Positions 32,683 through 43,164 of a DNA stretch of 64,000 nt are shown in pieces (position 1 is the stretch's first letter; every line of letters begins with the position of its first letter). The notes under the pieces are model-generated. The model was not told the origin of the DNA, did no database searches, and worked only from the letters and a program-made list of their open reading frames with translations. A program made the position numbers and the translations under genes. Source of the stretch: Desulfosudaceae bacterium (GTDB lineage Bacteria; Desulfobacterota; Desulfobacteria; Desulfobacterales; Desulfosudaceae); contig CAXXDV010000001.1 in NCBI GenBank assembly GCA_963674745.2, positions 608,001 to 672,000 on the forward strand, given 5' to 3'.

Positions 32683-32759
<77 letters not shown>

Positions 32760-32778
32760 ATAAAATCAATTTAATCTG

Positions 32779-33688: not shown

Positions 33689-36600
33689 ATGAAAATCAAA
33701 CAAACCTGCCTGCTGACGTTGTTCCTGGGGCTGGTACTGTCAATAGCGACATATTCAATGGCGGATGTGGATTTTACCGCCAGCAAAATGTATGACGCCG
33801 CCGGGGACAATCCAAATCCAGTTGCCACTGGTGACCTTAACGGCGACAACCACCCTGACCTGGTAACAGCTAATCGGTCATCCAACAACGTATCCGTACT
33901 GATCAACAACGGCGACGGCACTTTTGCCGCGGCCGTAAATTACAGTACCGGGAACTGGCCATATTCAGTTGCCATCGGGGACTTGGACGGCGACTCCCAC
34001 CCTGACCTGGTAACAGCTAATTCTTATTCCAACGACGTATCCGTGCTGATGGGCAACGGTGACGGTACTTTTGCCACGGATGTCATATACAGCGCCGGAG
34101 ACGGGCCACATTCAGTTGCCATCGGGGACTTGGACGGCGACTCCCATCCTGACCTGGTAACAACGAATAATGATGCCGACGACGTATCTGTGCTGATCAA
34201 TAACGGCGACGGCACTTTTGCCATGCGCGTAAAATACAGCGCCGGGAACGGGCCACGTTCAGTTGCCATCGGAGACCTGGACGGCGACTCCCACCCTGAT
34301 CTGACAGTTGGTAATATTTTGGACGACAACATATCCGTACTGATCAACAACGGCGACGGCACTTTTGCCGCGGCCGTCAACTACAGCGCCGGAGACGGGC
34401 CACGTTCAGTTGCCATCGGGGACCTGGACGGCGACTCCCATCCTGACCTGGTAACAGCTAACCAGTCATCCGACAACGTATCCGTGCTGACCAATAATGG
34501 AGACGGCACTTTTACCGCCCCAGTCAACTTCGCTGCAGATAACTCCCCCTATTCAATCGTCGCTGACGATTTGAATGGTGATAATTATCTGGATCTGGCT
34601 GTGGCTAATTATTACTCTGAAAGTTTGACAGTGCTGTTGGGCCACGGCAACGGCACCTTTGCCGCCGCTGTTAATTACGCTGCCGGAGAGGGAGCATGTT
34701 CAGTTGCCGTTACCGATCTCGACGGAGATACCCACCCAGATCTGGTTGCAGTCAATGGTGTAGCTGACAATATTTCTGTTTTGGCAAATAACGGCGATGG
34801 GACTTTTGACTGCGCTGTTAAATACGATGCGGGTGACGGGCCCTTTTCAATTGCCATTACCGATCTGGATAGTGATGCCAACCTGGATTTGGCGGTGGTC
34901 AATAATTATTCTGACGATGTCTCTGTGCTATTGGGCAACGGCAACGGGACTTTTACCGCATATACCAGCTACAGCGTGGGTGATTCACCATGGACAGTAG
35001 CCAGTGCCGACCTGAACGGTGATAATTGTCCAGACTTGGCTACGGCTAACGGTGTTTCTGACAATGTATCGGTGCTGTTGGGCAACGGTGATGGGACCTT
35101 TGGCGTCGCTGTTAATTTTGCCGCCGGTGATCGACCAATGTCAATTGCGATTGACGACCTTGACGGTGATACTTTCCCTGATTTGGTGGTGGCTAACAAT
35201 AACTCTGACAACTTGTCGGTACTGCTGGGCAACGGCGATGGGACTTTTGACGCCGCTGTTAACTATTCTATTTGGGGATCACCCAATTCAATTGCTATTG
35301 CCGATCTGAACGGTGATAATTGTCCGGACCTCCTGGCAGGGGATGTCGACTATGACATCGTCTCGGTACTGTTGGGCAACGGCGACGGCACCTTTGCCAC
35401 CCATACTGATTACAGTGTGGGTGATTCACCAAAGTCAATAGCCCTTGCCGACCTGAACGGTGATACCTATCCGGACTTGGCTGTGGCCAACATTTCTTCT
35501 GACAATGTGTCGGTGCTGTTAGGCAATGGCGATGGGAGCTTTGTCGCCGCTATTAATTATGCCGCCGGAGATGGACCAAAAGCGATTGCCATCGCGGATC
35601 TGAACAGCGACACTCACCTGGACTTGGCAGTAGCCAATAATTATTCTGACAACATCTCGGTGCTGTTGGGCAACGGTGATGGCACCTTTGCCGCTGCCGT
35701 CAATCTTATTGCCGGTAACATGTTGGAATGTATTGCCATTGCTGACCTTAATGGAGACTCTGCGCCGGATCTTGTAACCGCTAATCAGAAAGCCGACAGC
35801 GTATCCGTGCTGATTAACCGTTCAACACTATCCTGCGACACCCCACCCGCTGCCCCCATCCCGACCTCACCCTCGGGAACCATTGATCAGACCACGCCGA
35901 TCTATGTCTGGGAGAGCGATCCCTGCGCCGATGCTTACCAACTTATCATCCGGGACGAGGCCCAACAGGATATCTTTTCCCAATGGTATGATGCAGCTGT
36001 GGTGGATAACGGTGACGGAACCTGTTCTATAAATCCCGGCCTGGAACTTGCCCCGGGTAGTTATTATTGGCTGGTGCAGGCGCAAAATCAGTATGGAACA
36101 GGTCCCTTGAGTACGGAAATGGCCTTTACGGTCGAAGAAGCCGATAGCGACGGTGATGGCACGCCGGATTCCAGTGACGGCTGTCCCTACGATCCGAACA
36201 AGATTGATCCGGGTGCTTGCGGCTGCGGTATAGCGGACACGGACACCGACAGTGACGGCACACCGGACTGCAACGATGGCTGCCCGAATGATCCGGCCAA
36301 GGTTGATCCGGGTGCCTGCGGATGTGGGATTCCGGATACGGACACGGACAGTGACGGTACACCTGACTGTAACGACTTGTGCCCAAATGACCCGAACAAG
36401 GTTGATCCGGGTACATGCGGATGCGGCATAGCAGACACCGATACCGACAGCGATGGTACCCCGGACTGTATTGATCAGTGTCCAAATGATCCGAATAAAA
36501 CCAATCCCGGTACGTGCGGATGCGGTGTGCCGGATACAGACTCCGACGTTGACGGTGTTCCGGACTGTAACGATCAGTGTCCCAACGATCCAAACAAGAC

Positions 36601-38212
36601 GGTTCCGGGAACCTGCGGATGCGGGGTTGCGGACACGGATACCGATAGTGACGGTACGCTGGACTGCAACGATGGCTGTCCCAACGATCCGGCCAAGATC
36701 GATCCCGGAGTCTGCGGCTGCGGCGTAGCAGATACGGATACGGACAGTGACGGTACGCTGGACTGTAACGACGGTTGTCCGAATGATCCGGCCAAGATCG
36801 ATCCGGGTGCCTGCGGATGCGGAGTGCCTGACACTGACACGGACGGTGACGGCACGCCCGACTGCAATGACCTGTCGCCTTTTGGTGTTGACTTTGGTGA
36901 TGCCCCGGATCCGACCTACCCGACACTGCTTGCATCAGACGGCGCCCGCCATACGATCCTCCCGGGATATTTTCTGGGTTCAGGCATAGACTACGAATCT
37001 GACGGTCAGCCTGACGTCGATGCCATGGGCGATGATAACAATGGAATTACGGACGAAGACGGGGTGGTTTTCAACACCCTTATTATTGCGGGTCAAACCG
37101 TGAGCTTGACAGTAACCGCTTCGGACACCGGGAACCTGGATGCCTGGATCGATTTGAATGGGGATGGTGACTGGGCTGATGCGGAAGATCAGATTTTTAC
37201 CAACCAGGCATTAACAGCCGGCGAAAACGATTTGGACATTGATCTTCCGGTCAGCGCTGTGGCAGGTATGACCTTTGCGCGATTCCGGTTCAGTGCAGCC
37301 GGTGGCTTATCATATGACGGCCTTGCCGCTGATGGAGAAATAGAAGATTACCAGGTTGAGATTCTGGGGGATGCAGATGGCGATGGTGAACCGGACATCA
37401 CCGATGGTTGCCCGAACGACGCGAACAAGGTTGATCCCGGTACGTGCGGCTGCGGTGTGTTGGATACCGACTCCGATGTTGACGGTGTTCCGGACTGTAT
37501 TGATCAGTGCCCCAACGATCCCAACAAGACGGTCCCAGGCACCTGCGGATGCGGCGTTGCTGACACGGACACCGACAGTGACGGTACGCCGGACTGTATC
37601 GATCAGTGCCCGAATGATCCCGATAAGACCGTTCCCGGTACATGCGGATGCGGTGTAACGGATGCTGATTCAGATAACGACGGTGTTGCGGATTGTAATG
37701 ACAATTGCCCCGGCACACCCTCCGGAGAAAGTGTTGATTCCAGTGGATGCGATATTGACGCTCCGACGCCCGACCCGATGGTTTTCTCATCCAACCCCTC
37801 GGCAGGTGGAACGGGTTCGATCAGCATGACCGCGGCAACAGCCGCTGACGGGAATGGTGTCCAATATTATTTTGAGGAGACAACAGGAAACAGCGGTGGG
37901 ACAGACAGCGGGTGGCAGGACAGTGCCAGTTATACAGACACCGGGTTAAGCGCCAGCACGCAATACGCGTATCGGGTCAAGGCCCGCGACAAATCCGCAA
38001 ACAATAACGAAACCGGCTGGTCTTCGGTACAGACCGCCACAACCGACGATCCGCCCAAGTCGGGCTGTGGCGCGGCGCCAATGGGACGCAACGGTATTGA
38101 CCCTGTTTCCGCCAGAAAATCCATGGGCAAGGCAGCGCTTCCGTTAGCGCCCTCGATCCTGGCACTGGGCATTTGGTCTCTGATTAACCGCAAAAAAAGT
38201 CGCGAGGCCTAA
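33689..38212 (+). CDS. Large secreted surface protein: 14 FG-GAP/VCBS repeats, Ig-like domain, TSP3-like Ca-binding CGCG repeats, GEVED domain, FN3-like domain, C-terminal Cys-TM-basic tail
   Basis: Signal peptide ending YSMA|D; 14 DL(N/D)(G/S)D...DL units; 10 DxCPxDxxKxxPGxCGCG units; DFGDAP...AWID.N.DGD...ARFR...GEIEDY; ends KSGCGAAP...AALPLAPSILALGIWSLINRKKSREA. Confidence 0.9.
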   Translation: MKIKQTCLLTLFLGLVLSIATYSMADVDFTASKMYDAAGDNPNPVATGDLNGDNHPDLVTANRSSNNVSVLINNGDGTFAAAVNYSTGNWPYSVAIGDLDGDSHPDLVTANSYSNDVSVLMGNGDGTFATDVIYSAGDGPHSVAIGDLDGDSHPDLVTTNNDADDVSVLINNGDGTFAMRVKYSAGNGPRSVAIGDLDGDSHPDLTVGNILDDNISVLINNGDGTFAAAVNYSAGDGPRSVAIGDLDGDSHPDLVTANQSSDNVSVLTNNGDGTFTAPVNFAADNSPYSIVADDLNGDNYLDLAVANYYSESLTVLLGHGNGTFAAAVNYAAGEGACSVAVTDLDGDTHPDLVAVNGVADNISVLANNGDGTFDCAVKYDAGDGPFSIAITDLDSDANLDLAVVNNYSDDVSVLLGNGNGTFTAYTSYSVGDSPWTVASADLNGDNCPDLATANGVSDNVSVLLGNGDGTFGVAVNFAAGDRPMSIAIDDLDGDTFPDLVVANNNSDNLSVLLGNGDGTFDAAVNYSIWGSPNSIAIADLNGDNCPDLLAGDVDYDIVSVLLGNGDGTFATHTDYSVGDSPKSIALADLNGDTYPDLAVANISSDNVSVLLGNGDGSFVAAINYAAGDGPKAIAIADLNSDTHLDLAVANNYSDNISVLLGNGDGTFAAAVNLIAGNMLECIAIADLNGDSAPDLVTANQKADSVSVLINRSTLSCDTPPAAPIPTSPSGTIDQTTPIYVWESDPCADAYQLIIRDEAQQDIFSQWYDAAVVDNGDGTCSINPGLELAPGSYYWLVQAQNQYGTGPLSTEMAFTVEEADSDGDGTPDSSDGCPYDPNKIDPGACGCGIADTDTDSDGTPDCNDGCPNDPAKVDPGACGCGIPDTDTDSDGTPDCNDLCPNDPNKVDPGTCGCGIADTDTDSDGTPDCIDQCPNDPNKTNPGTCGCGVPDTDSDVDGVPDCNDQCPNDPNKTVPGTCGCGVADTDTDSDGTLDCNDGCPNDPAKIDPGVCGCGVADTDTDSDGTLDCNDGCPNDPAKIDPGACGCGVPDTDTDGDGTPDCNDLSPFGVDFGDAPDPTYPTLLASDGARHTILPGYFLGSGIDYESDGQPDVDAMGDDNNGITDEDGVVFNTLIIAGQTVSLTVTASDTGNLDAWIDLNGDGDWADAEDQIFTNQALTAGENDLDIDLPVSAVAGMTFARFRFSAAGGLSYDGLAADGEIEDYQVEILGDADGDGEPDITDGCPNDANKVDPGTCGCGVLDTDSDVDGVPDCIDQCPNDPNKTVPGTCGCGVADTDTDSDGTPDCIDQCPNDPDKTVPGTCGCGVTDADSDNDGVADCNDNCPGTPSGESVDSSGCDIDAPTPDPMVFSSNPSAGGTGSISMTAATAADGNGVQYYFEETTGNSGGTDSGWQDSASYTDTGLSASTQYAYRVKARDKSANNNETGWSSVQTATTDDPPKSGCGAAPMGRNGIDPVSARKSMGKAALPLAPSILALGIWSLINRKKSREA

Positions 38213-38224
38213 TCTTCACGAGAC

Positions 38225-38257
38225 AACAAGGGCGGTCAGGCAATGACCGCCCTTGTT
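38225..38257. terminator. Hairpin between convergent genes, probable bidirectional terminator
   Basis: Perfect 14-bp stem AACAAGGGCGGTCA/TGACCGCCCTTGTT with a 5-nt loop. Confidence 0.75.
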
Positions 38258-40241
38258 ATTTATAGGGGAAAAAGCGGCAGGCGGGATCGCCAAGCAGGTT
38301 GTACAGGAAAAGATCATTCCGCAGCATGCCCGGCGTGCCCAGTGACGCCTTTTCATTCTCAGGCACAGCATTTAAAAGAGACCTCGCCAGCGGGTCATTG
38401 CCGGCAATCTCGTTGAATGATTGATCCCCGGTATCATAGAGGGCCTGCTGAATGCCAAGGAACGCCTGGCCGATCGTGTCGGTCGTTTTTTGCAGATGCA
38501 TGATTATTCCCTTTACAAACAAATAGTTTGTCAGGGGATGGGTTGTGCCTGTTGCCGATACGACCCCGACAGGACCGTTTGGTTGGGCCAAAAACGCTTC
38601 CCCTAGAGACGGTCCGCTGCTTTTGGGCAGGCAATACCGTCCTGAGTCACACCCCAGCATAAAAAGAACACCCGGGGGGGAATTCCCTGCCGGAGAATTC
38701 AACGACATTTTCGAAACATCTTCTACGCTGAGAAATATCTCTTCACCATCGTAAGTTCCGGCTGTCACGCTCCGGTATGACCCGTGAGAGACGATGAGCG
38801 ACAGAAAGGGGCGGTTGCTGTTTAAGCGGGCAAGAAATGTAAAGGGCTGCGCTTTGAGTTCTCCTGATGAGACGGCCTGAGAATCCGCGCCGATAACAAC
38901 AGGAACAATCCAGTCCGGCAGGCGTTCCAGCAAACGGGGCGCCATCCGGCTCATCTGGGCCGTGTACCCCTGGGCGCCAAACCACACCAGCACCTTCTTT
39001 TGTGCAGGACCGGCATACTGTTTTGAATAGCTGATGATTTTTTTGATCTGTGCGTCAAGTTCAGCGGTAGACTGAATAGCCAGCCGCCCTACCGGCACAT
39101 CCGGCAAACCGTCATTGTCCATATCACCGTATTGAGCGTCCGACGTATATTTTCCGGAGGCAAACGACGGCATATGCCATGGGGCCTGCATGTCATTGCC
39201 ATGCCCGCAATCACCAACAATCAGGATATTTCCGATCGGTTCTTGGAACATCCTTTGCCGGCTCTCTATCCAGCCTTTTACGTCTTCGCGGTCCGGGGTG
39301 GTTTCCCAGGCCCTGACAACGACCCGATATCCTTCTTTTTCTCTAAAACCCGCCCATTCGTTTAAGGCCTCGGAAAAAACAGACCGGGTCACAACAAGAT
39401 AGGGGATTTGGTTAACGGTTTTCTCAGAAACCGCTTTAAACATCATATTTCTTATGCCGGTTCCCGCCAACAACGAAAGAAGCAGCAGACAGACGGCCGC
39501 GACAGCCCCTCTTTTCTTCCATTTCAGGATCAAAAGAACGCACAGGGATAAGATAAAAATCAACACACAAACGACCTGAAACACGCGTAGCCCCGGAATT
39601 AATAAAAGGCCGGAATCCGCACCTCTGAAAAACTCGCTGATAAACCGATGAGCGGCAAGAAACAGGCAGTACAGCGGAAATAAACAGACCCGCTTTTCAG
39701 GCTTCCCCCACAACCATTGAAGGATAACAAGGGAGAACGCTTCACCGATCATGCTGTAAATCTGGGTCGGATGCACCATGCAATTCAGACGATCTGAAAA
39801 AACAGCCCAGGGGACATCCGAAGGCGTTCCATAACAGCAGCCATTCACCAGGCATCCGATACGGGCGATAATATGGGCCAGCGCATAAGCCGGCGCGACA
39901 CTTCCCAGATTGCTCCAAAACGGCTTTTTAGCCACCCGAAGAACGATCCACATGCCGAGAGGTCCCAGCAGCGGGCCTCCCAGCCAGGTGCCTGTTTCCT
40001 GCCAGAAAGCGATTGCCAGCCAAAAGTCATCCACGAACAGTCGGGGATAGAAGATCAGCACATAAAGGATCCGGGTGCCCAGAAGACCGGCGTAGATCCC
40101 CGCAGTGAGGGCGATAATAGCCAGGGGGAAAGAGCAGCCGTTTTTGAACATGTTTCTGGTGGCCAGCACACCACCGGCAAGGAACCCTGTAAAGCCCCAG
40201 AACCAGTAATTCATTATTAAATTGATGAAATATTCAACCAT
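38256..40241 (-). CDS. Fusion of an Lgt-like prolipoprotein diacylglyceryl transferase domain and a peptidase C25 (gingipain-like) domain
   Basis: N-terminal TM domain: GTRILYV, ARIGCLVNGCCYG, HPTQIY, RFISEFFR. C-terminal domain: ILIVGD, SDAQYGD.D.D..PDVPVGRL, SHG (His), GCDSG (Cys), SLGEAFL, YNLLGDP. Confidence 0.85.
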   Translation of the reverse strand: MVEYFINLIMNYWFWGFTGFLAGGVLATRNMFKNGCSFPLAIIALTAGIYAGLLGTRILYVLIFYPRLFVDDFWLAIAFWQETGTWLGGPLLGPLGMWIVLRVAKKPFWSNLGSVAPAYALAHIIARIGCLVNGCCYGTPSDVPWAVFSDRLNCMVHPTQIYSMIGEAFSLVILQWLWGKPEKRVCLFPLYCLFLAAHRFISEFFRGADSGLLLIPGLRVFQVVCVLIFILSLCVLLILKWKKRGAVAAVCLLLLSLLAGTGIRNMMFKAVSEKTVNQIPYLVVTRSVFSEALNEWAGFREKEGYRVVVRAWETTPDREDVKGWIESRQRMFQEPIGNILIVGDCGHGNDMQAPWHMPSFASGKYTSDAQYGDMDNDGLPDVPVGRLAIQSTAELDAQIKKIISYSKQYAGPAQKKVLVWFGAQGYTAQMSRMAPRLLERLPDWIVPVVIGADSQAVSSGELKAQPFTFLARLNSNRPFLSLIVSHGSYRSVTAGTYDGEEIFLSVEDVSKMSLNSPAGNSPPGVLFMLGCDSGRYCLPKSSGPSLGEAFLAQPNGPVGVVSATGTTHPLTNYLFVKGIIMHLQKTTDTIGQAFLGIQQALYDTGDQSFNEIAGNDPLARSLLNAVPENEKASLGTPGMLRNDLFLYNLLGDPACRFFPYK

Positions 40242-41095
40242 TCCACAACGATATTAATACTCACGTGAATAATCAAGGCCCAACCGATGCCGGATGTCCT
40301 CTGCGTCACTGCGCCAAAAATCAGCCCGAGTGCCAGGACACATCCAAGATAACCGAAACCGGACAGAACAACAGGCCCAAGATGCATATGAAACACGGTG
40401 TAAAGCAACGCCTGAAAAATGATTCCCGGGATCAGGCCATACCGCTCCACACAAACGGGTTGAAGTATTCCCCGGTAGCAAATCTCTTCGGTGCCACCGG
40501 TCAGGGAGGCTTTCATGATCGCGATCAACACGACCCCCCAGAATGGTCCCAGCGGCTGAATCTGAATCCTTGTCACAATACCGATCGCCATGAAAACGGC
40601 TGCCGCGGAAGTAACGACCAGAACCACAGACAAGGGCGTTGTGACAGAAAAGCGCCCCCACGCCCCCCAACGAATGGGATTGCCCTGCCCATTGACGCGG
40701 TTCATAATAAGCACCGGAACCAGGACGTTGGCCGCAAATATGAAATGAAAATATAATAACAGCAGATATCCGTATAAATTACCGGGACGGGCAAGGGGCC
40801 ACGCGACTAGGCCATAATACCGAAAACAATTAAACACCCAGAATCCGGTGGCAAGAGCTGTAATTAACCTGAGTAGCCGACGATCTGCATAAACAGGTCT
40901 TAACACCGGGACAAATGCCGTAATCGCCATGCCAGTCACAATAAACAGGGCCACGGCAATACGCCAGCGGTCTGCCCCGGCTGCTGTGAGCAAATGAACC
41001 ACAAGTAAAAAAACAGCTAAAAGTGCAACCGGCTCAAATATTAAATATACTTTATTGTTTTTGTGAAAGGCGTGATCAGGGATATGCGTTTTCAT
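40217..41095 (-). CDS. CPBP/Abi (CAAX prenyl protease type II-like) glutamic intramembrane protease
   Basis: Multi-TM protein with EEICYRG, YTVFH and HVSIN motifs; its 3' end overlaps the start of the Lgt-C25 gene. Confidence 0.88.
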   Translation of the reverse strand: MKTHIPDHAFHKNNKVYLIFEPVALLAVFLLVVHLLTAAGADRWRIAVALFIVTGMAITAFVPVLRPVYADRRLLRLITALATGFWVFNCFRYYGLVAWPLARPGNLYGYLLLLYFHFIFAANVLVPVLIMNRVNGQGNPIRWGAWGRFSVTTPLSVVLVVTSAAAVFMAIGIVTRIQIQPLGPFWGVVLIAIMKASLTGGTEEICYRGILQPVCVERYGLIPGIIFQALLYTVFHMHLGPVVLSGFGYLGCVLALGLIFGAVTQRTSGIGWALIIHVSINIVVEWLNISSI

Positions 41096-41236
41096 GGACT
41101 GATATTATACGATATTATTCCCCATGACAAAAGCACACACAACATTCAGGTATCCGCCAAAATCCACGATTGATTTTTCATGTGTTTTCCTAAAGGACAC
41201 AGCAGGTCAAAAAATCGTCCCCTTTAAATACTGACG

Positions 41237-41303
41237 TTCTTGCAATACGTTGCATTGGTTGCACATAGGTTGCAGCGAGAGGTTGTTTCAGGGCAACTTT
41301 AAC
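41237..41303 (+). repeat. att-arm-like repeat, copy A (iterated TTGCA)
   Basis: TTCTTGCAATACGTTGCATTGGTTGCACATAGGTTGCAGCGAGAGG...CAGGGCAAC; near-identical copy at about 43037 and a partial copy at about 48737. Confidence 0.8.
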
Positions 41304-41347
41304 AGATTCGGTTTCAATAAAATCAATATGTTATAGGTTAAAACAAA

Positions 41348-41393
41348 ACTTCGAATCCGTAGGCCGGGGGTTCGAACCCCTCCGGGCGCGCCA
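41348..41393 (+). repeat. att core: tRNA-Arg 3' fragment, copy 2
   Basis: ACTTCGAATCCGTAGGCCGGGGGTTCGAACCCCTCCGGGCGCGCCA; one mismatch to 32714-32759. Confidence 0.93.
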
Positions 41394-41404
41394 ATAAATT
41401 TATT

Positions 41405-42322
41405 TCAGAAAGTCCATGGACCTGACACAGTCCATTTTGAAGGCGGCGACTTTCGTGCAATCAAAGCCGAGGTTATCGGGCTGATAAATTCTTTCACTTG
41501 CATGACAATGATTTCGAACTCAGCAGGAACATGATCATGTTTGAGCTTTTTCCTGAAAGCATTCCATTGGACTTGTTTTGCTATGATGAACTCATGTGAA
41601 AAGGCAACTATATTTATGCTGTCTGGAAGTTCTGTCCCACGTTGCTCAAGCGTCAATCTGATCGCTTCTGACAGAATCTTACCATCAAAATCAAAATTGC
41701 GCGAAAGAAGCCAGATATCATAGAAATCCTTCATCCGGCTGTTCAACTCTCGACGTTTCAACATGGCTTCAAATTTTTCCGCGATCGAACTTTCACGGCT
41801 GTAACACAATAATTGAGGGGCCGGGAACTCCAGTATCGTCGGTATTTCTGATCTTTCAGGTTCGGGATAGATAATATCGCCGAATCCTATATCAATCTGT
41901 ATATTAAGCCTCATTGTATCCAGTTTTGTCGGAAACGATATTCTGACGCCCTGATATTCCGCATCCTCAGTAATATGCTCGGCCATTATGTTTTCAGGAG
42001 AGAAAGAGAGTCCGTCAGGATCAACAGCAACGGTTAGTATATCGGTTATATTGGAAATAAGTGACGACACGTCATTGTCTGTTTTACCAAGCAGGTCAAT
42101 GTCCATCGTTGATCGGATTTCAGGCGCTTGCCAGATCCGAAGCATCAGCGCCCCCTTCAGGATAAACCGGTTGGCATGCCGAGATTGTGCCAGGCGATAC
42201 AGAAACCGCTCCATGGCATAGTAATGAACCAGTTCTTGAAAAGGACGGCCATCAGTTCTGGCTTTATTGAGCAGCCGCTGTCTTACGGAGGCTGAGACAT
42301 TTTTCACCTGCTTTTTTATCAA
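41405..42322 (-). CDS. AbiEii/AbiGii-family nucleotidyl transferase toxin (type IV TA)
   Basis: ERFLYRL, FILKGA, RSTMDIDL, IDIGFGD, IAEKFEA and NSRMKDFYD. Confidence 0.9.
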   Translation of the reverse strand: MIKKQVKNVSASVRQRLLNKARTDGRPFQELVHYYAMERFLYRLAQSRHANRFILKGALMLRIWQAPEIRSTMDIDLLGKTDNDVSSLISNITDILTVAVDPDGLSFSPENIMAEHITEDAEYQGVRISFPTKLDTMRLNIQIDIGFGDIIYPEPERSEIPTILEFPAPQLLCYSRESSIAEKFEAMLKRRELNSRMKDFYDIWLLSRNFDFDGKILSEAIRLTLEQRGTELPDSINIVAFSHEFIIAKQVQWNAFRKKLKHDHVPAEFEIIVMQVKEFISPITSALIARKSPPSKWTVSGPWTF

Positions 42323-42912
42323 AGTGTTGCCTCCAGATAAGGCGTCATAATCTTTTTTACCCGACAGACCTCAGCGTACCTCAGCAGCTTTTCGAGATTG
42401 AATGGTTGCCTGGTTCGATACAGCTTAAGCGCTTCAAGAACAACCTCCATTCCAACTTTGTTCCGGAACTTAAAACAATCGGCCAGGGTCTTCTCCGGAG
42501 TATAGATCCTTACGTTTGCACCATCTATGGTGTGTTTTTCGATGCCGGAGGTGTAAGCTTTATCAGAGAATCGATGGGCCTGAACAGGAGGGTAGTCGAG
42601 AGAAGGGGCTCTTGAGTTTTTTGGCACCGCCACGGAAACAACATGTGGAATCTGGGTCGTGATATTATGGTAATGCAGGGCTGAGATAAGGCAGATTACG
42701 GTATTAGGGAACCGAAGGCTTACTGTAACAAGATCCGGGTTGGATAGCGGGGGCAGTTCCACAAGGCGATAAACACCTCTGGTCACTTGCTCTATTAGCC
42801 CCCTGTCTCTTAGCGAATAAAGCATATAACGCGTAATACCATGTGAAATCGCCTCACTCATTCGAAGTTGCCCGCCATGCTTCCGGAAAATTGTTAGTGG
42901 AGATTCTTTCAT
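42319..42912 (-). CDS. AbiEi-family antitoxin / transcriptional regulator
   Basis: wHTH RGVYRL, ICLISALHYH..TTQIP and YTPEKTLADCF; coupled to the toxin gene. Confidence 0.9.
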   Translation of the reverse strand: MKESPLTIFRKHGGQLRMSEAISHGITRYMLYSLRDRGLIEQVTRGVYRLVELPPLSNPDLVTVSLRFPNTVICLISALHYHNITTQIPHVVSVAVPKNSRAPSLDYPPVQAHRFSDKAYTSGIEKHTIDGANVRIYTPEKTLADCFKFRNKVGMEVVLEALKLYRTRQPFNLEKLLRYAEVCRVKKIMTPYLEATL

Positions 42913-42968: not shown

Positions 42969-43036
42969 ATCAGGATAAAAAAGTCAAGATGAATTTGAAA
43001 ATCCCTCAAAATTCGGACGAGACTTAAATTCTTAGG

Positions 43037-43103
43037 TTCTTGCAATACCTTGCATTGGTTGCGCATAGGTTGCAGCGAGAGGTCGCTCCAGGGCAACCTT
43101 GAC
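43037..43103 (+). repeat. att-arm-like repeat, copy B (no tRNA fragment follows)
   Basis: TTCTTGCAATACCTTGCATTGGTTGCGCATAGGTTGCAGCGAGAGG...CAGGGCAAC. Confidence 0.8.
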
Positions 43104-43164
43104 AATTATTTGCTAAACAAAATCATTTTTCTGACCTTCTATTAAGTCAAAAACAAGCCCGGGT

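Follow-up and report, generated by a model that had tools for sequence, protein, structure and literature searches.

We analysed a window of 64,000 nucleotides (the whole stretch of DNA studied here) from a Desulfosudaceae bacterium, in which one gene joins an Lgt-like membrane domain to a peptidase C25 domain. This fusion gene overlaps a gene for an intramembrane protease of the CPBP (Rce1-like) family and is convergent with a gene for a large secreted protein, the cargo, which ends in a cysteine-bearing tail; we refer to the three genes together as the cassette. The preliminary description of this DNA had recognised the fusion itself, but it missed the overlapping CPBP gene and the Cys-bearing tail of the neighbour. 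The features of the cassette, with their positions in the window, are the following.

38256..40241, minus strand: Lgt-like/peptidase C25 fusion gene, 661 aa (open reading frame (ORF) with both Pfam domains; architecture present in 50 other clusters)
39510..40241, minus strand: Lgt-like membrane domain, residues 1-244 (Pfam LGT over residues 12-237; alignment to E. coli Lgt, 5AZB)
39438..39509, minus strand: extra transmembrane helix, residues 245-268, beyond the KWKKRG loop (family-averaged hydropathy peak of 2.39)
38274..39401, minus strand: peptidase C25 domain, residues 281-656, with H486 and C531 (Pfam; alignment to gingipain R, 4IEF)
40217..41095, minus strand: CPBP (Rce1-like) intramembrane protease gene, 292 aa (Pfam Rce1-like, 48.4 bits; overlaps the start of the fusion gene by 25 nt)
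33689..38212, plus strand: cargo gene, a 1507-aa secreted FG-GAP/GEVED protein with an N-terminal signal peptide (ORF; Pfam FG-GAP_3 in 13 stretches, and GEVED)
38024..38209, plus strand: putative C-terminal sorting tail of the cargo, last 62 aa, composed of PPKSGCGAAPMGRNG, a spacer, ALPLAPSILALGIWSLI and RKKSREA (alignment A3 of 17 tails)
38066..38068, plus strand: codon of the invariant Cys, cargo residue 1460 (the only invariant column of alignment A3)

As proposed in the preliminary description, the fusion is encoded by a single unbroken ORF (38256..40241, minus strand, ATG start, 661 aa), and all the motifs named there are present in its translation: ARIGCLVNGCCYG (residues 126-138), HPTQIY (157-162), RFISEFFRG (199-207), TWLGG (85-89), SHG (485-487) and GC (530-531). 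The Pfam scan recognised LGT over residues 12-237 with 125.5 bits (E = 2.7e-36, cut-off 24.9) and Peptidase_C25 over residues 281-656 with 111.5 bits (E = 7.1e-32, cut-off 23). An artefact of assembly can be dismissed, given that 51 of the 57 matches in a collection of 5.8 billion proteins carry both Pfam domains, the window protein included. In a library of 1.84 billion representatives, 16 representatives of 50%-identity clusters matched over the full length. The complete fusion was found in genomes of Desulfobacterales, Desulfobacteraceae, Desulfatiglandales, SAR324, Nitrospiraceae, Pirellulales, Hydrogenedentota and Gemmatimonadota, with a single cultured isolate among them, Desulfoluna spongiiphila AA1 (L014), whose cargo has 1837 aa. 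A query with the single protein retrieved no related locus, and an alignment-based query was needed; the scan of metagenomes added three fusion loci, the remaining 77 loci being ordinary Lgts. Neighbour-joining with 31 stand-alone Lgts and 17 of the 34 fusion rows grouped the Lgt domains of the latter in one clade in 30/30 bootstraps.

The search for a separate canonical lgt gene in the same genome was successful. Its product has 258 aa, is encoded on contig C3, reaches 227.5 bits with Pfam LGT and 141.6 bits with TIGR00544 (cut-off 118.9), and is 34% identical to the fusion over 208 residues. The fusion fell below the curated equivalog cut-offs (55.9 vs 118.9 for TIGR00544 and 73.5 vs 334 for NF000778) and was present in none of the 400 other sampled genomes of the phylum (E<=1e-60). 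These observations bear out the earlier suggestion that it is a specialised paralog and not the housekeeping Lgt, that is, not the general lipoprotein-modifying enzyme of the cell. The opposite proposal, a housekeeping Lgt with an accidental C25 appendage or an assembly chimera, has nothing but the Pfam LGT match on its side. We rejected both versions, given that a separate canonical lgt is present, the 50 other clusters come from independent assemblies, the Lgt domains of the fusions form a single clade in all bootstraps and the contig of the window is 2.69 Mb long; the probability that we would grant to either is negligible.

Other genes and proteins related to the two domains were observed in the course of these searches. 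The genome contains a very divergent third Lgt-like gene (G000:C1:1875034-1875732; L003:1351-2397), which immediately follows a phosphatidylserine-decarboxylase gene; its product of 348 aa reaches 28 bits with Pfam LGT and carries the motif GRLACLSFGCCYG. At G000:C3:1934012-1935043 (L004), an open frame of 2971 aa includes another Peptidase_C25 domain (244 bits). In a SAR324 metagenome-assembled genome (MAG; L012:6902-9219) the fusion appears as two overlapping ORFs of 343 and 459 aa, which could reflect a frameshift or a real Lgt-like/C25 split. Eleven of the 34 aligned family members are 760-790 aa long and share a conserved extra C-terminal domain of ~120 aa (P0010, P0020, P0022 and others; alignment columns 730-860), which is absent from the window protein. 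Lgt is also fused to PDZ (400-491 aa) or to a periplasmic binding protein domain (541 aa) in P0055-P0057 and P0149; the Lgt-PDZ fusions are of interest because PDZ domains bind C-termini. P0049, a metagenomic protein in which Lgt, the initial portion of C25 and Thy1 are combined, is likely to be an assembly chimera. Alternative fusions among the closest relatives of C25 and Lgt were not informative as to function.

Regarding the disposition of the fusion in the membrane, hydropathy averaged over 34 homologs revealed the Lgt helices, then the KWKKRG loop and then a single hydrophobic segment (residues 245-268). Extra transmembrane helices had been described between the domains; an additional membrane segment indeed exists, but it is one and not several, and residues 275-661 contain no hydrophobic segment in the same profile. 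E. coli Lgt has a periplasmic N-terminus, whose strand forms part of the periplasmic head, seven helices, an active site in the periplasmic half and a positive cytoplasmic face, according to the sections consulted of Mao et al. (PMC4728403). Since seven helices would leave the C-terminus of the Lgt part in the cytoplasm, the KWKKRG loop and an eighth helix would bring the C25 domain into the periplasm. Thus, Lgt homology, the charge of the loop and the one extra helix suggest that both active sites face the periplasm, as had been anticipated, and the C25 domain would share this side of the membrane with the active site of Lgt and with the Cys motif of the tail. The fusion may couple lipid transfer to proteolysis or transpeptidation.

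To map the residues of both domains, a profile of the 34 family members was aligned to solved structures. On E. coli Lgt (5AZB), the correspondences are Y12=Y26, R127=R143, G138=G154, H157=H196, R199=R239, E203=E243 and R206=R246, and all seven fusion residues are invariant or at least 90% conserved in the 34 members. Among them are the counterparts of the E. coli residues of catalysis and of the hydrogen-bond network (Y26, R143, G154, R239, E243 and R246). The positions of E. coli N146 and E151 are occupied by Cys in the fusion (C130 and C135), and likewise in the canonical Lgt of the genome. The sequence tWlGG of the fusion falls opposite SFHGG of E. coli Lgt, in agreement with the preliminary description, and the position of H103 in the HGGL motif is taken by L87. 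This difference could matter, since the HGGL region has been proposed as the lipobox-binding site (Mao et al., PMC4728403, in the part consulted). However, TWLGG does not serve as the diagnostic mark of a specialised enzyme that it had been taken for: the canonical Lgt of the genome, which has the motif ARIGCFFAGCCYG like the fusion (RIGC..GCCYG), reads FYGG at this place. With Tyr at the H103 site of a canonical enzyme, His is not universal in this lineage, and we rejected TWLGG alone as proof of specialisation.

When the same profile was compared with gingipain R (4IEF, E = 1.2e-12), H486 and C531 of the C25 part fell opposite H211 and C244, which we take to be the catalytic dyad of that enzyme. 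C531 is present in 34/34 members and H486 in at least 90% of them. The ESM Atlas search returned only C25 clusters, with scores of 0.75-0.76, and NCBIfam 20.0 contains no model that captures the fusion, its CPBP partner or the tail.

The stop of the CPBP gene is located 25 nt inside the fusion gene on the same strand. A CPBP homolog directly upstream of the fusion, in the same orientation, was found in 19/19 loci (the window, 14/14 genome loci, 3/3 metagenome loci and one further genome locus). Residues E203, E204, R208, H236, H277, E285 and N288 are invariant in 14 homologs and correspond to the glutamic-protease motifs. Among the NCBIfam models, Mrt_core weakly matched 12 of these 14 members, MrtJ 12 and MrtS 10, and the generic CPBP models matched as many or more (ABC_perm_CPBP 13, Rv0804 13); none reached its cut-off. 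The CPBP profile had no match at E<=1 among solved structures. Longer, fused CPBP forms were not found, which is weak evidence.

The cargo gene is convergent with the fusion gene, and the C-terminal end of its product reads ...PPKSGCGAAPMGRNGIDPVSARKSMGKAALPLAPSILALGIWSLINRKKSREA. At its N-terminus there is an ordinary Sec signal peptide that ends in ...SMA/DV and has no lipobox. Within the gene, two sets of repeats were observed at 33801-35799 and 36143-37768: 12 tandem 147-nt units that encode the FG-GAP repeats, and eight 99-nt units that encode Asp-rich repeats with Cys, of a thrombospondin-type-3-like kind. The comparison of tails from different loci yielded the consensus K-x-x-C-G-x-x-P-M-x-R, followed by a spacer of ~12 residues, a Pro-containing membrane helix that opens with a P-L motif and a final basic cluster. 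The Cys was kept in 22/22 tails and is the sole invariant residue; relative to it, the tails have Gly at +1 (18 tails), Pro at +4 (16), Met at +5 (12), Arg at +7 (12) and Lys at -3 (15). In the tails compared, the Cys is 42-52 residues from the C-terminal end and ~20-27 residues before the helix. The proteins that bear these tails are otherwise unrelated, and include an M4 thermolysin with PKD, an M28 peptidase with PKD, Ig/cadherin, GHL10, RHS and FG-GAP proteins. Unrelated bodies with a common tail are typical of a modular sorting signal. One Pirellulales tail is also accompanied by the fn3-like segment that precedes the tail in the window.

The 16 tails of other loci, with the window left out, were made into a profile and compared with the 13,858 ORFs of at least 100 aa of the genome. 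The profile detected only the gene adjacent to the fusion (E = 5.6e-16), the next best value being 0.071, and phmmer with the window tail revealed no second tail in the genome. At least one tail-bearing gene was present in 14/19 fusion loci, within the DNA fetched. For fusion loci that had no local tail, two tail genes were found elsewhere in the genome in G401 and another two in G403; the loci L006 and L009 are on short contigs and were left out of this judgement. The 400 other genomes of the phylum contained neither the fusion nor the tail. In the order Pirellulales (251 genomes) the fusion was present in three genomes and the tail in two, both of them fusion-positive, and none of the 248 fusion-negative genomes had the tail, eight of them with a stand-alone C25 protein. 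In all, the tail was found in 0/648 sampled genomes without the fusion and in 3/4 of those with it. As controls, 77 ordinary-Lgt loci (511 kb) gave no match to the tail or CPBP profiles, and 65 C25-only loci (990 kb) gave no tail match and one weak CPBP match. The stand-alone C25 proteins of Planctomycetota, of ~500 aa, lack a conserved neighbour and are not accompanied by Lgt or CPBP. From the gene overlap, the adjacency and this distribution, we conclude that the fusion, the CPBP protease and the tail very probably constitute one functional system.

This co-occurrence bears on another possible function, in which the fusion is an alternative Lgt with a built-in maturation protease for a subset of classical lipobox lipoproteins, and the tail and the CPBP protease are unrelated to it. 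The Lgt fold and its catalytic residues are intact, and a periplasmic protease could work on exported substrates. Nevertheless, such a function would leave the strict co-occurrence with tail and CPBP unexplained, the cargo in the window has a Sec signal peptide and not a lipobox, and a canonical Lgt is already present in the genome; for these reasons we find it improbable.

The related MAG loci L010 (448-9074) and L017 (335-9075) present an additional arrangement, in which a tail protein of 265 aa (Ig/cadherin-like) ends a cluster of genes for an MshE-type T2SSE ATPase, a T2SSF protein and four N-methyl pseudopilins, with CPBP and the fusion following directly. This cluster, found in a single lineage, recalls the reported dependence of MYXO-CTERM proteins on type II secretion (PMC11980579, sections consulted). 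The genome of the window encodes four secretins.

The nearest precedent is the MYXO-CTERM model, in which a Cys is presumably lipidated by an enzyme that 'remains unidentified', an 'Lgt-like acyl-transferase' being predicted, and the protein is then cut by the CPBP protease MrtX (PMC11980579, 2025 mBio, as far as consulted). Considering the residues conserved in the fusion and the composition of the tail, we propose, with somewhat better than even confidence, that the cassette encodes a dedicated system for C-terminal sorting, horizontally mobile and of the myxosortase type, in which the Lgt-like domain lipidates the Cys of the tail and two proteases remove the anchor. That the modification is specifically S-diacylglycerylation of this Cys seems to us only slightly more probable than the contrary. 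In this scheme, Sec would export the cargo, and the C-terminal helix would hold it in the inner membrane with the Cys motif in the periplasm. The Lgt-like domain would move diacylglycerol from phosphatidylglycerol onto the invariant Cys, after which the periplasmic C25 domain and CPBP would take off the spacer and the helix that lie beyond the lipidated residue. In one plausible order, C25 would cut first and leave a short C-terminal stub, and CPBP would trim this stub as Rce1 trims -AAX. The substrates of Rce1-type enzymes are short stubs beyond a lipidated Cys, and the spacer here is of ~20-27 residues, so a first cut by C25 is attractive, although still a guess. The cargo would end lipid-anchored by its C-terminus and could be passed to the cell surface.

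The basic residues around the Cys allow a different interpretation, in which the Lgt-like domain is a mere anchor or docking module and C25 and CPBP release or degrade the tail-anchored cargo, with no lipid involved. Gingipain-type C25 enzymes are hydrolases, the Lys at -3 (15/22) and the Arg at +7 (12/22) could be cleavage sites, and M. xanthus releases part of its cargo from the cell (PMC11980579, sections consulted). However, an inert anchor would not be expected to retain seven Lgt catalytic residues across phyla, and the invariant Cys of the substrate would be left unexplained. We consider that such a shedding or quality-control function has a small chance of being correct.

The C25 family also includes PorU, the sortase of type IX secretion, and the C25 profile matches its structure (6ZA2) at E = 4.2e-8. 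This opens the possibility of a sortase or glycosylphosphatidylinositol (GPI)-transamidase-like reaction: C25 would cut near S/G-C-G-A-A and form an acyl-enzyme on C531, the Lgt-like domain would present a lipid head group as acceptor of the new C-terminus, the Cys would serve for recognition instead of accepting the lipid, and CPBP would clear the leftover helix. The C25 dyad is conserved, and a lipid-binding membrane domain fused to a cysteine protease would suit a transfer at one site. The layout of the tail (small residues, hydrophilic spacer and hydrophobic end) presumably resembles a GPI-anchor signal as well. Nonetheless, the Cys is the sole invariant residue of the tail, which fits a chemical role better than recognition, and the Lgt-like domain retains the residues for diacylglyceryl transfer to a thiol. 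In addition, the PorU models, with cut-offs of 420 (NCBIfam NF033707) and 450, gave 16.8 and 15.9 bits, and gingipain R, a hydrolase, was matched better than PorU (50.5 vs 35.5 bits). Overall, we regard a sortase-like transfer as unlikely, though less so than the shedding or lipobox functions.

Several observations weigh against lipidation of the tail followed by removal of its anchor. The CPBP protease is below every curated myxosortase cut-off (Mrt_core, MrtX, MrtC, MrtP, MrtJ and MrtS; Mrt_core 23.1 bits vs 100). The window tail matches no NCBIfam family at E<=10, and no curated CTERM model was significant over the 17 tails, the best values being 0.0014 for Heimdall-CTERM (4 tails), 0.021 for JDVT-CTERM (3) and 0.84 for MYXO-CTERM (2). 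With its ~20-27 residues of spacing, the Cys is farther from the helix than a lipobox Cys is from its own, the orientation of the helix is inverted relative to a signal peptide, and what precedes the Cys (G, S, F or Y at -1) agrees only loosely with a lipobox. No tail was detectable in G402, a fusion-positive MAG of 2.9 Mb. Moreover, the loci L010, L017 and L087 are close kin, so the 22 tails are not independent and the counts overstate independence. The topology of the fusion is deduced from homology and charge and not from a structural model, and the same origin in sequence comparison applies to all the enzymology of the cassette. Finally, the known model leaves two proteases for one cut unexplained; the role of C25 is the weakest link of the proposal, and what we assign to it is a guess.

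The cassette is bounded by two copies of a direct repeat, which correspond to the following features.

32683..32771, plus strand: tRNA-Arg (tcg), detected with ARAGORN; includes the left-hand member (32714-32771) of a direct repeat of 58 nt
41348..41405, plus strand: right-hand member of this repeat of the tRNA-Arg 3' end (93% identity), a little past the CPBP gene

The repeat comprises the 3' 46 nt of tRNA-Arg(tcg) and ~12 nt more; 54/58 positions are identical, with a sharp onset of the identity within the anticodon loop. Between the copies, 8.6 kb of DNA contain only a DUF4143 fragment, the cargo, the fusion and CPBP, and no integrase. The cassette resembles an old island inserted at a tRNA gene, with att-type boundaries, a mode of insertion that fits its patchy spread across phyla. 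A tRNA near the cassette was seen in 1/14 other loci, no att-like repeat was seen in L085 and no plasmid in PLSDB encodes the fusion. An 81-nt direct repeat (88% identity; 41224-41304 and 43024-43104) flanks an AbiEii/AbiEi toxin-antitoxin pair (41405-42912), which suggests that this pair is a second small inserted module beside the cassette.

Cys-bearing signals processed by CPBP proteases have been described as MYXO-, JDVT-, Synerg- and CGP-CTERM (10.1101/2023.06.07.544157; PMC11980579, both consulted in part), and the tail reported here would be a fifth, previously unrecognised signal of the Cys type. The fusion is a candidate for the lipidating enzyme presumed to act on such tails, to which it is tied by the gene overlap, the 19/19 adjacency across several phyla and a tail found only together with the fusion. 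It would also be the first case of a C25 protease in a pathway of this type, and the whole sorting system could travel as a small island at a tRNA gene. As a compact unit of three genes that can be transferred to E. coli, the cassette makes the question of the lipidating enzyme experimentally approachable. We found no description of the Lgt-C25 architecture in a literature search that mostly lay outside subscription journals, and the main text of the Haft preprint (10.1101/2023.06.07.544157; the supplements were not part of the count) has 0 occurrences of Lgt, diacylglyc-, C25 or gingipain.

Compared with known Cys-type sorting systems, the cassette has their tripartite tail and co-occurring CPBP protease, while it remains below all the curated tail and protease models. 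With the MYXO-CTERM/MrtX system of Myxococcus xanthus it shares the invariant Cys, the membrane helix and the basic cluster, a CPBP glutamic intramembrane protease as the cognate enzyme, and unrelated cargoes with only the tail in common (PMC11980579; 10.1101/2023.06.07.544157, as far as consulted). It differs in that the tails match the MYXO-CTERM model only at E = 0.84 (2/17 tails), CPBP does not reach the cut-off of Mrt_core, ~20-27 residues separate the Cys from the helix, there are 1-3 cargoes per genome instead of dozens, and a dedicated Lgt-like/C25 fusion is encoded beside the protease, none being mentioned for MrtX in the portion of PMC11980579 consulted. JDVT-CTERM/MrtJ is likewise a sporadic dedicated system with a single cargo beside the CPBP enzyme, and conserved residues within its helix suggest recognition in the membrane, as in the cassette. 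However, JDVT-CTERM has a DP motif nine residues after the Cys, in place of K-x-x-C-G-x-x-P-M and L-P-L-x-P, its model matches 3/17 tails (best E = 0.021), and no lipid-transferase or C25 partner appears for it in the parts consulted of 10.1101/2023.06.07.544157.

The canonical Lgt to LspA pathway has in common with the cassette the Lgt fold with its catalytic Arg, Glu and Tyr, a Cys by small residues on an exported, membrane-tethered substrate and, in the scheme proposed here, lipidation followed by removal of the tethering helix (PMC4728403, in part). In the cassette, however, the signal is C-terminal and the helix inverted, HGGL reads TW[LMQ]GG in the fusion family, the periplasmic head between GCCYG and HPTQ has ~18 residues, the equivalog cut-offs are not reached and the proteases are CPBP and C25 instead of LspA. 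PorU (6ZA2) resembles the cassette in the C25 fold, the His/Cys dyad, a C-terminal sorting signal of secreted proteins and a link to lipid anchoring. In Bacteroidota it presumably removes a folded C-terminal domain of ~80 residues and has no membrane domain. The cassette further differs from it in the score of 16.8 bits against 420 (NCBIfam), and no type IX secretion context was seen in the window.

A last comparison concerns eukaryotic CAAX processing, in which a prenyltransferase acts before Rce1 (10.1101/2023.06.07.544157, sections consulted). Tentatively, and with clearly less confidence than in the sorting system as such, the cassette could contain the first dedicated enzyme that places diacylglyceryl on the Cys of a C-terminal 'inverted lipobox', and represent a three-enzyme bacterial counterpart of that pathway, in which the Lgt-like domain lipidates, C25 cuts the helix and CPBP trims. 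If this is true, enzymes of the Lgt type would be the lipid transferases of MYXO-CTERM-like signals in general. Both pathways would have a thioether lipid on a Cys near the C-terminus and a subsequent CPBP/Rce1-type cut beyond it. They would differ in that the donor in the cassette is phosphatidylglycerol, the transferase a homolog of Lgt and the site the periplasm, and in that 42-52 residues, including a helix, lie beyond the Cys, rather than three.

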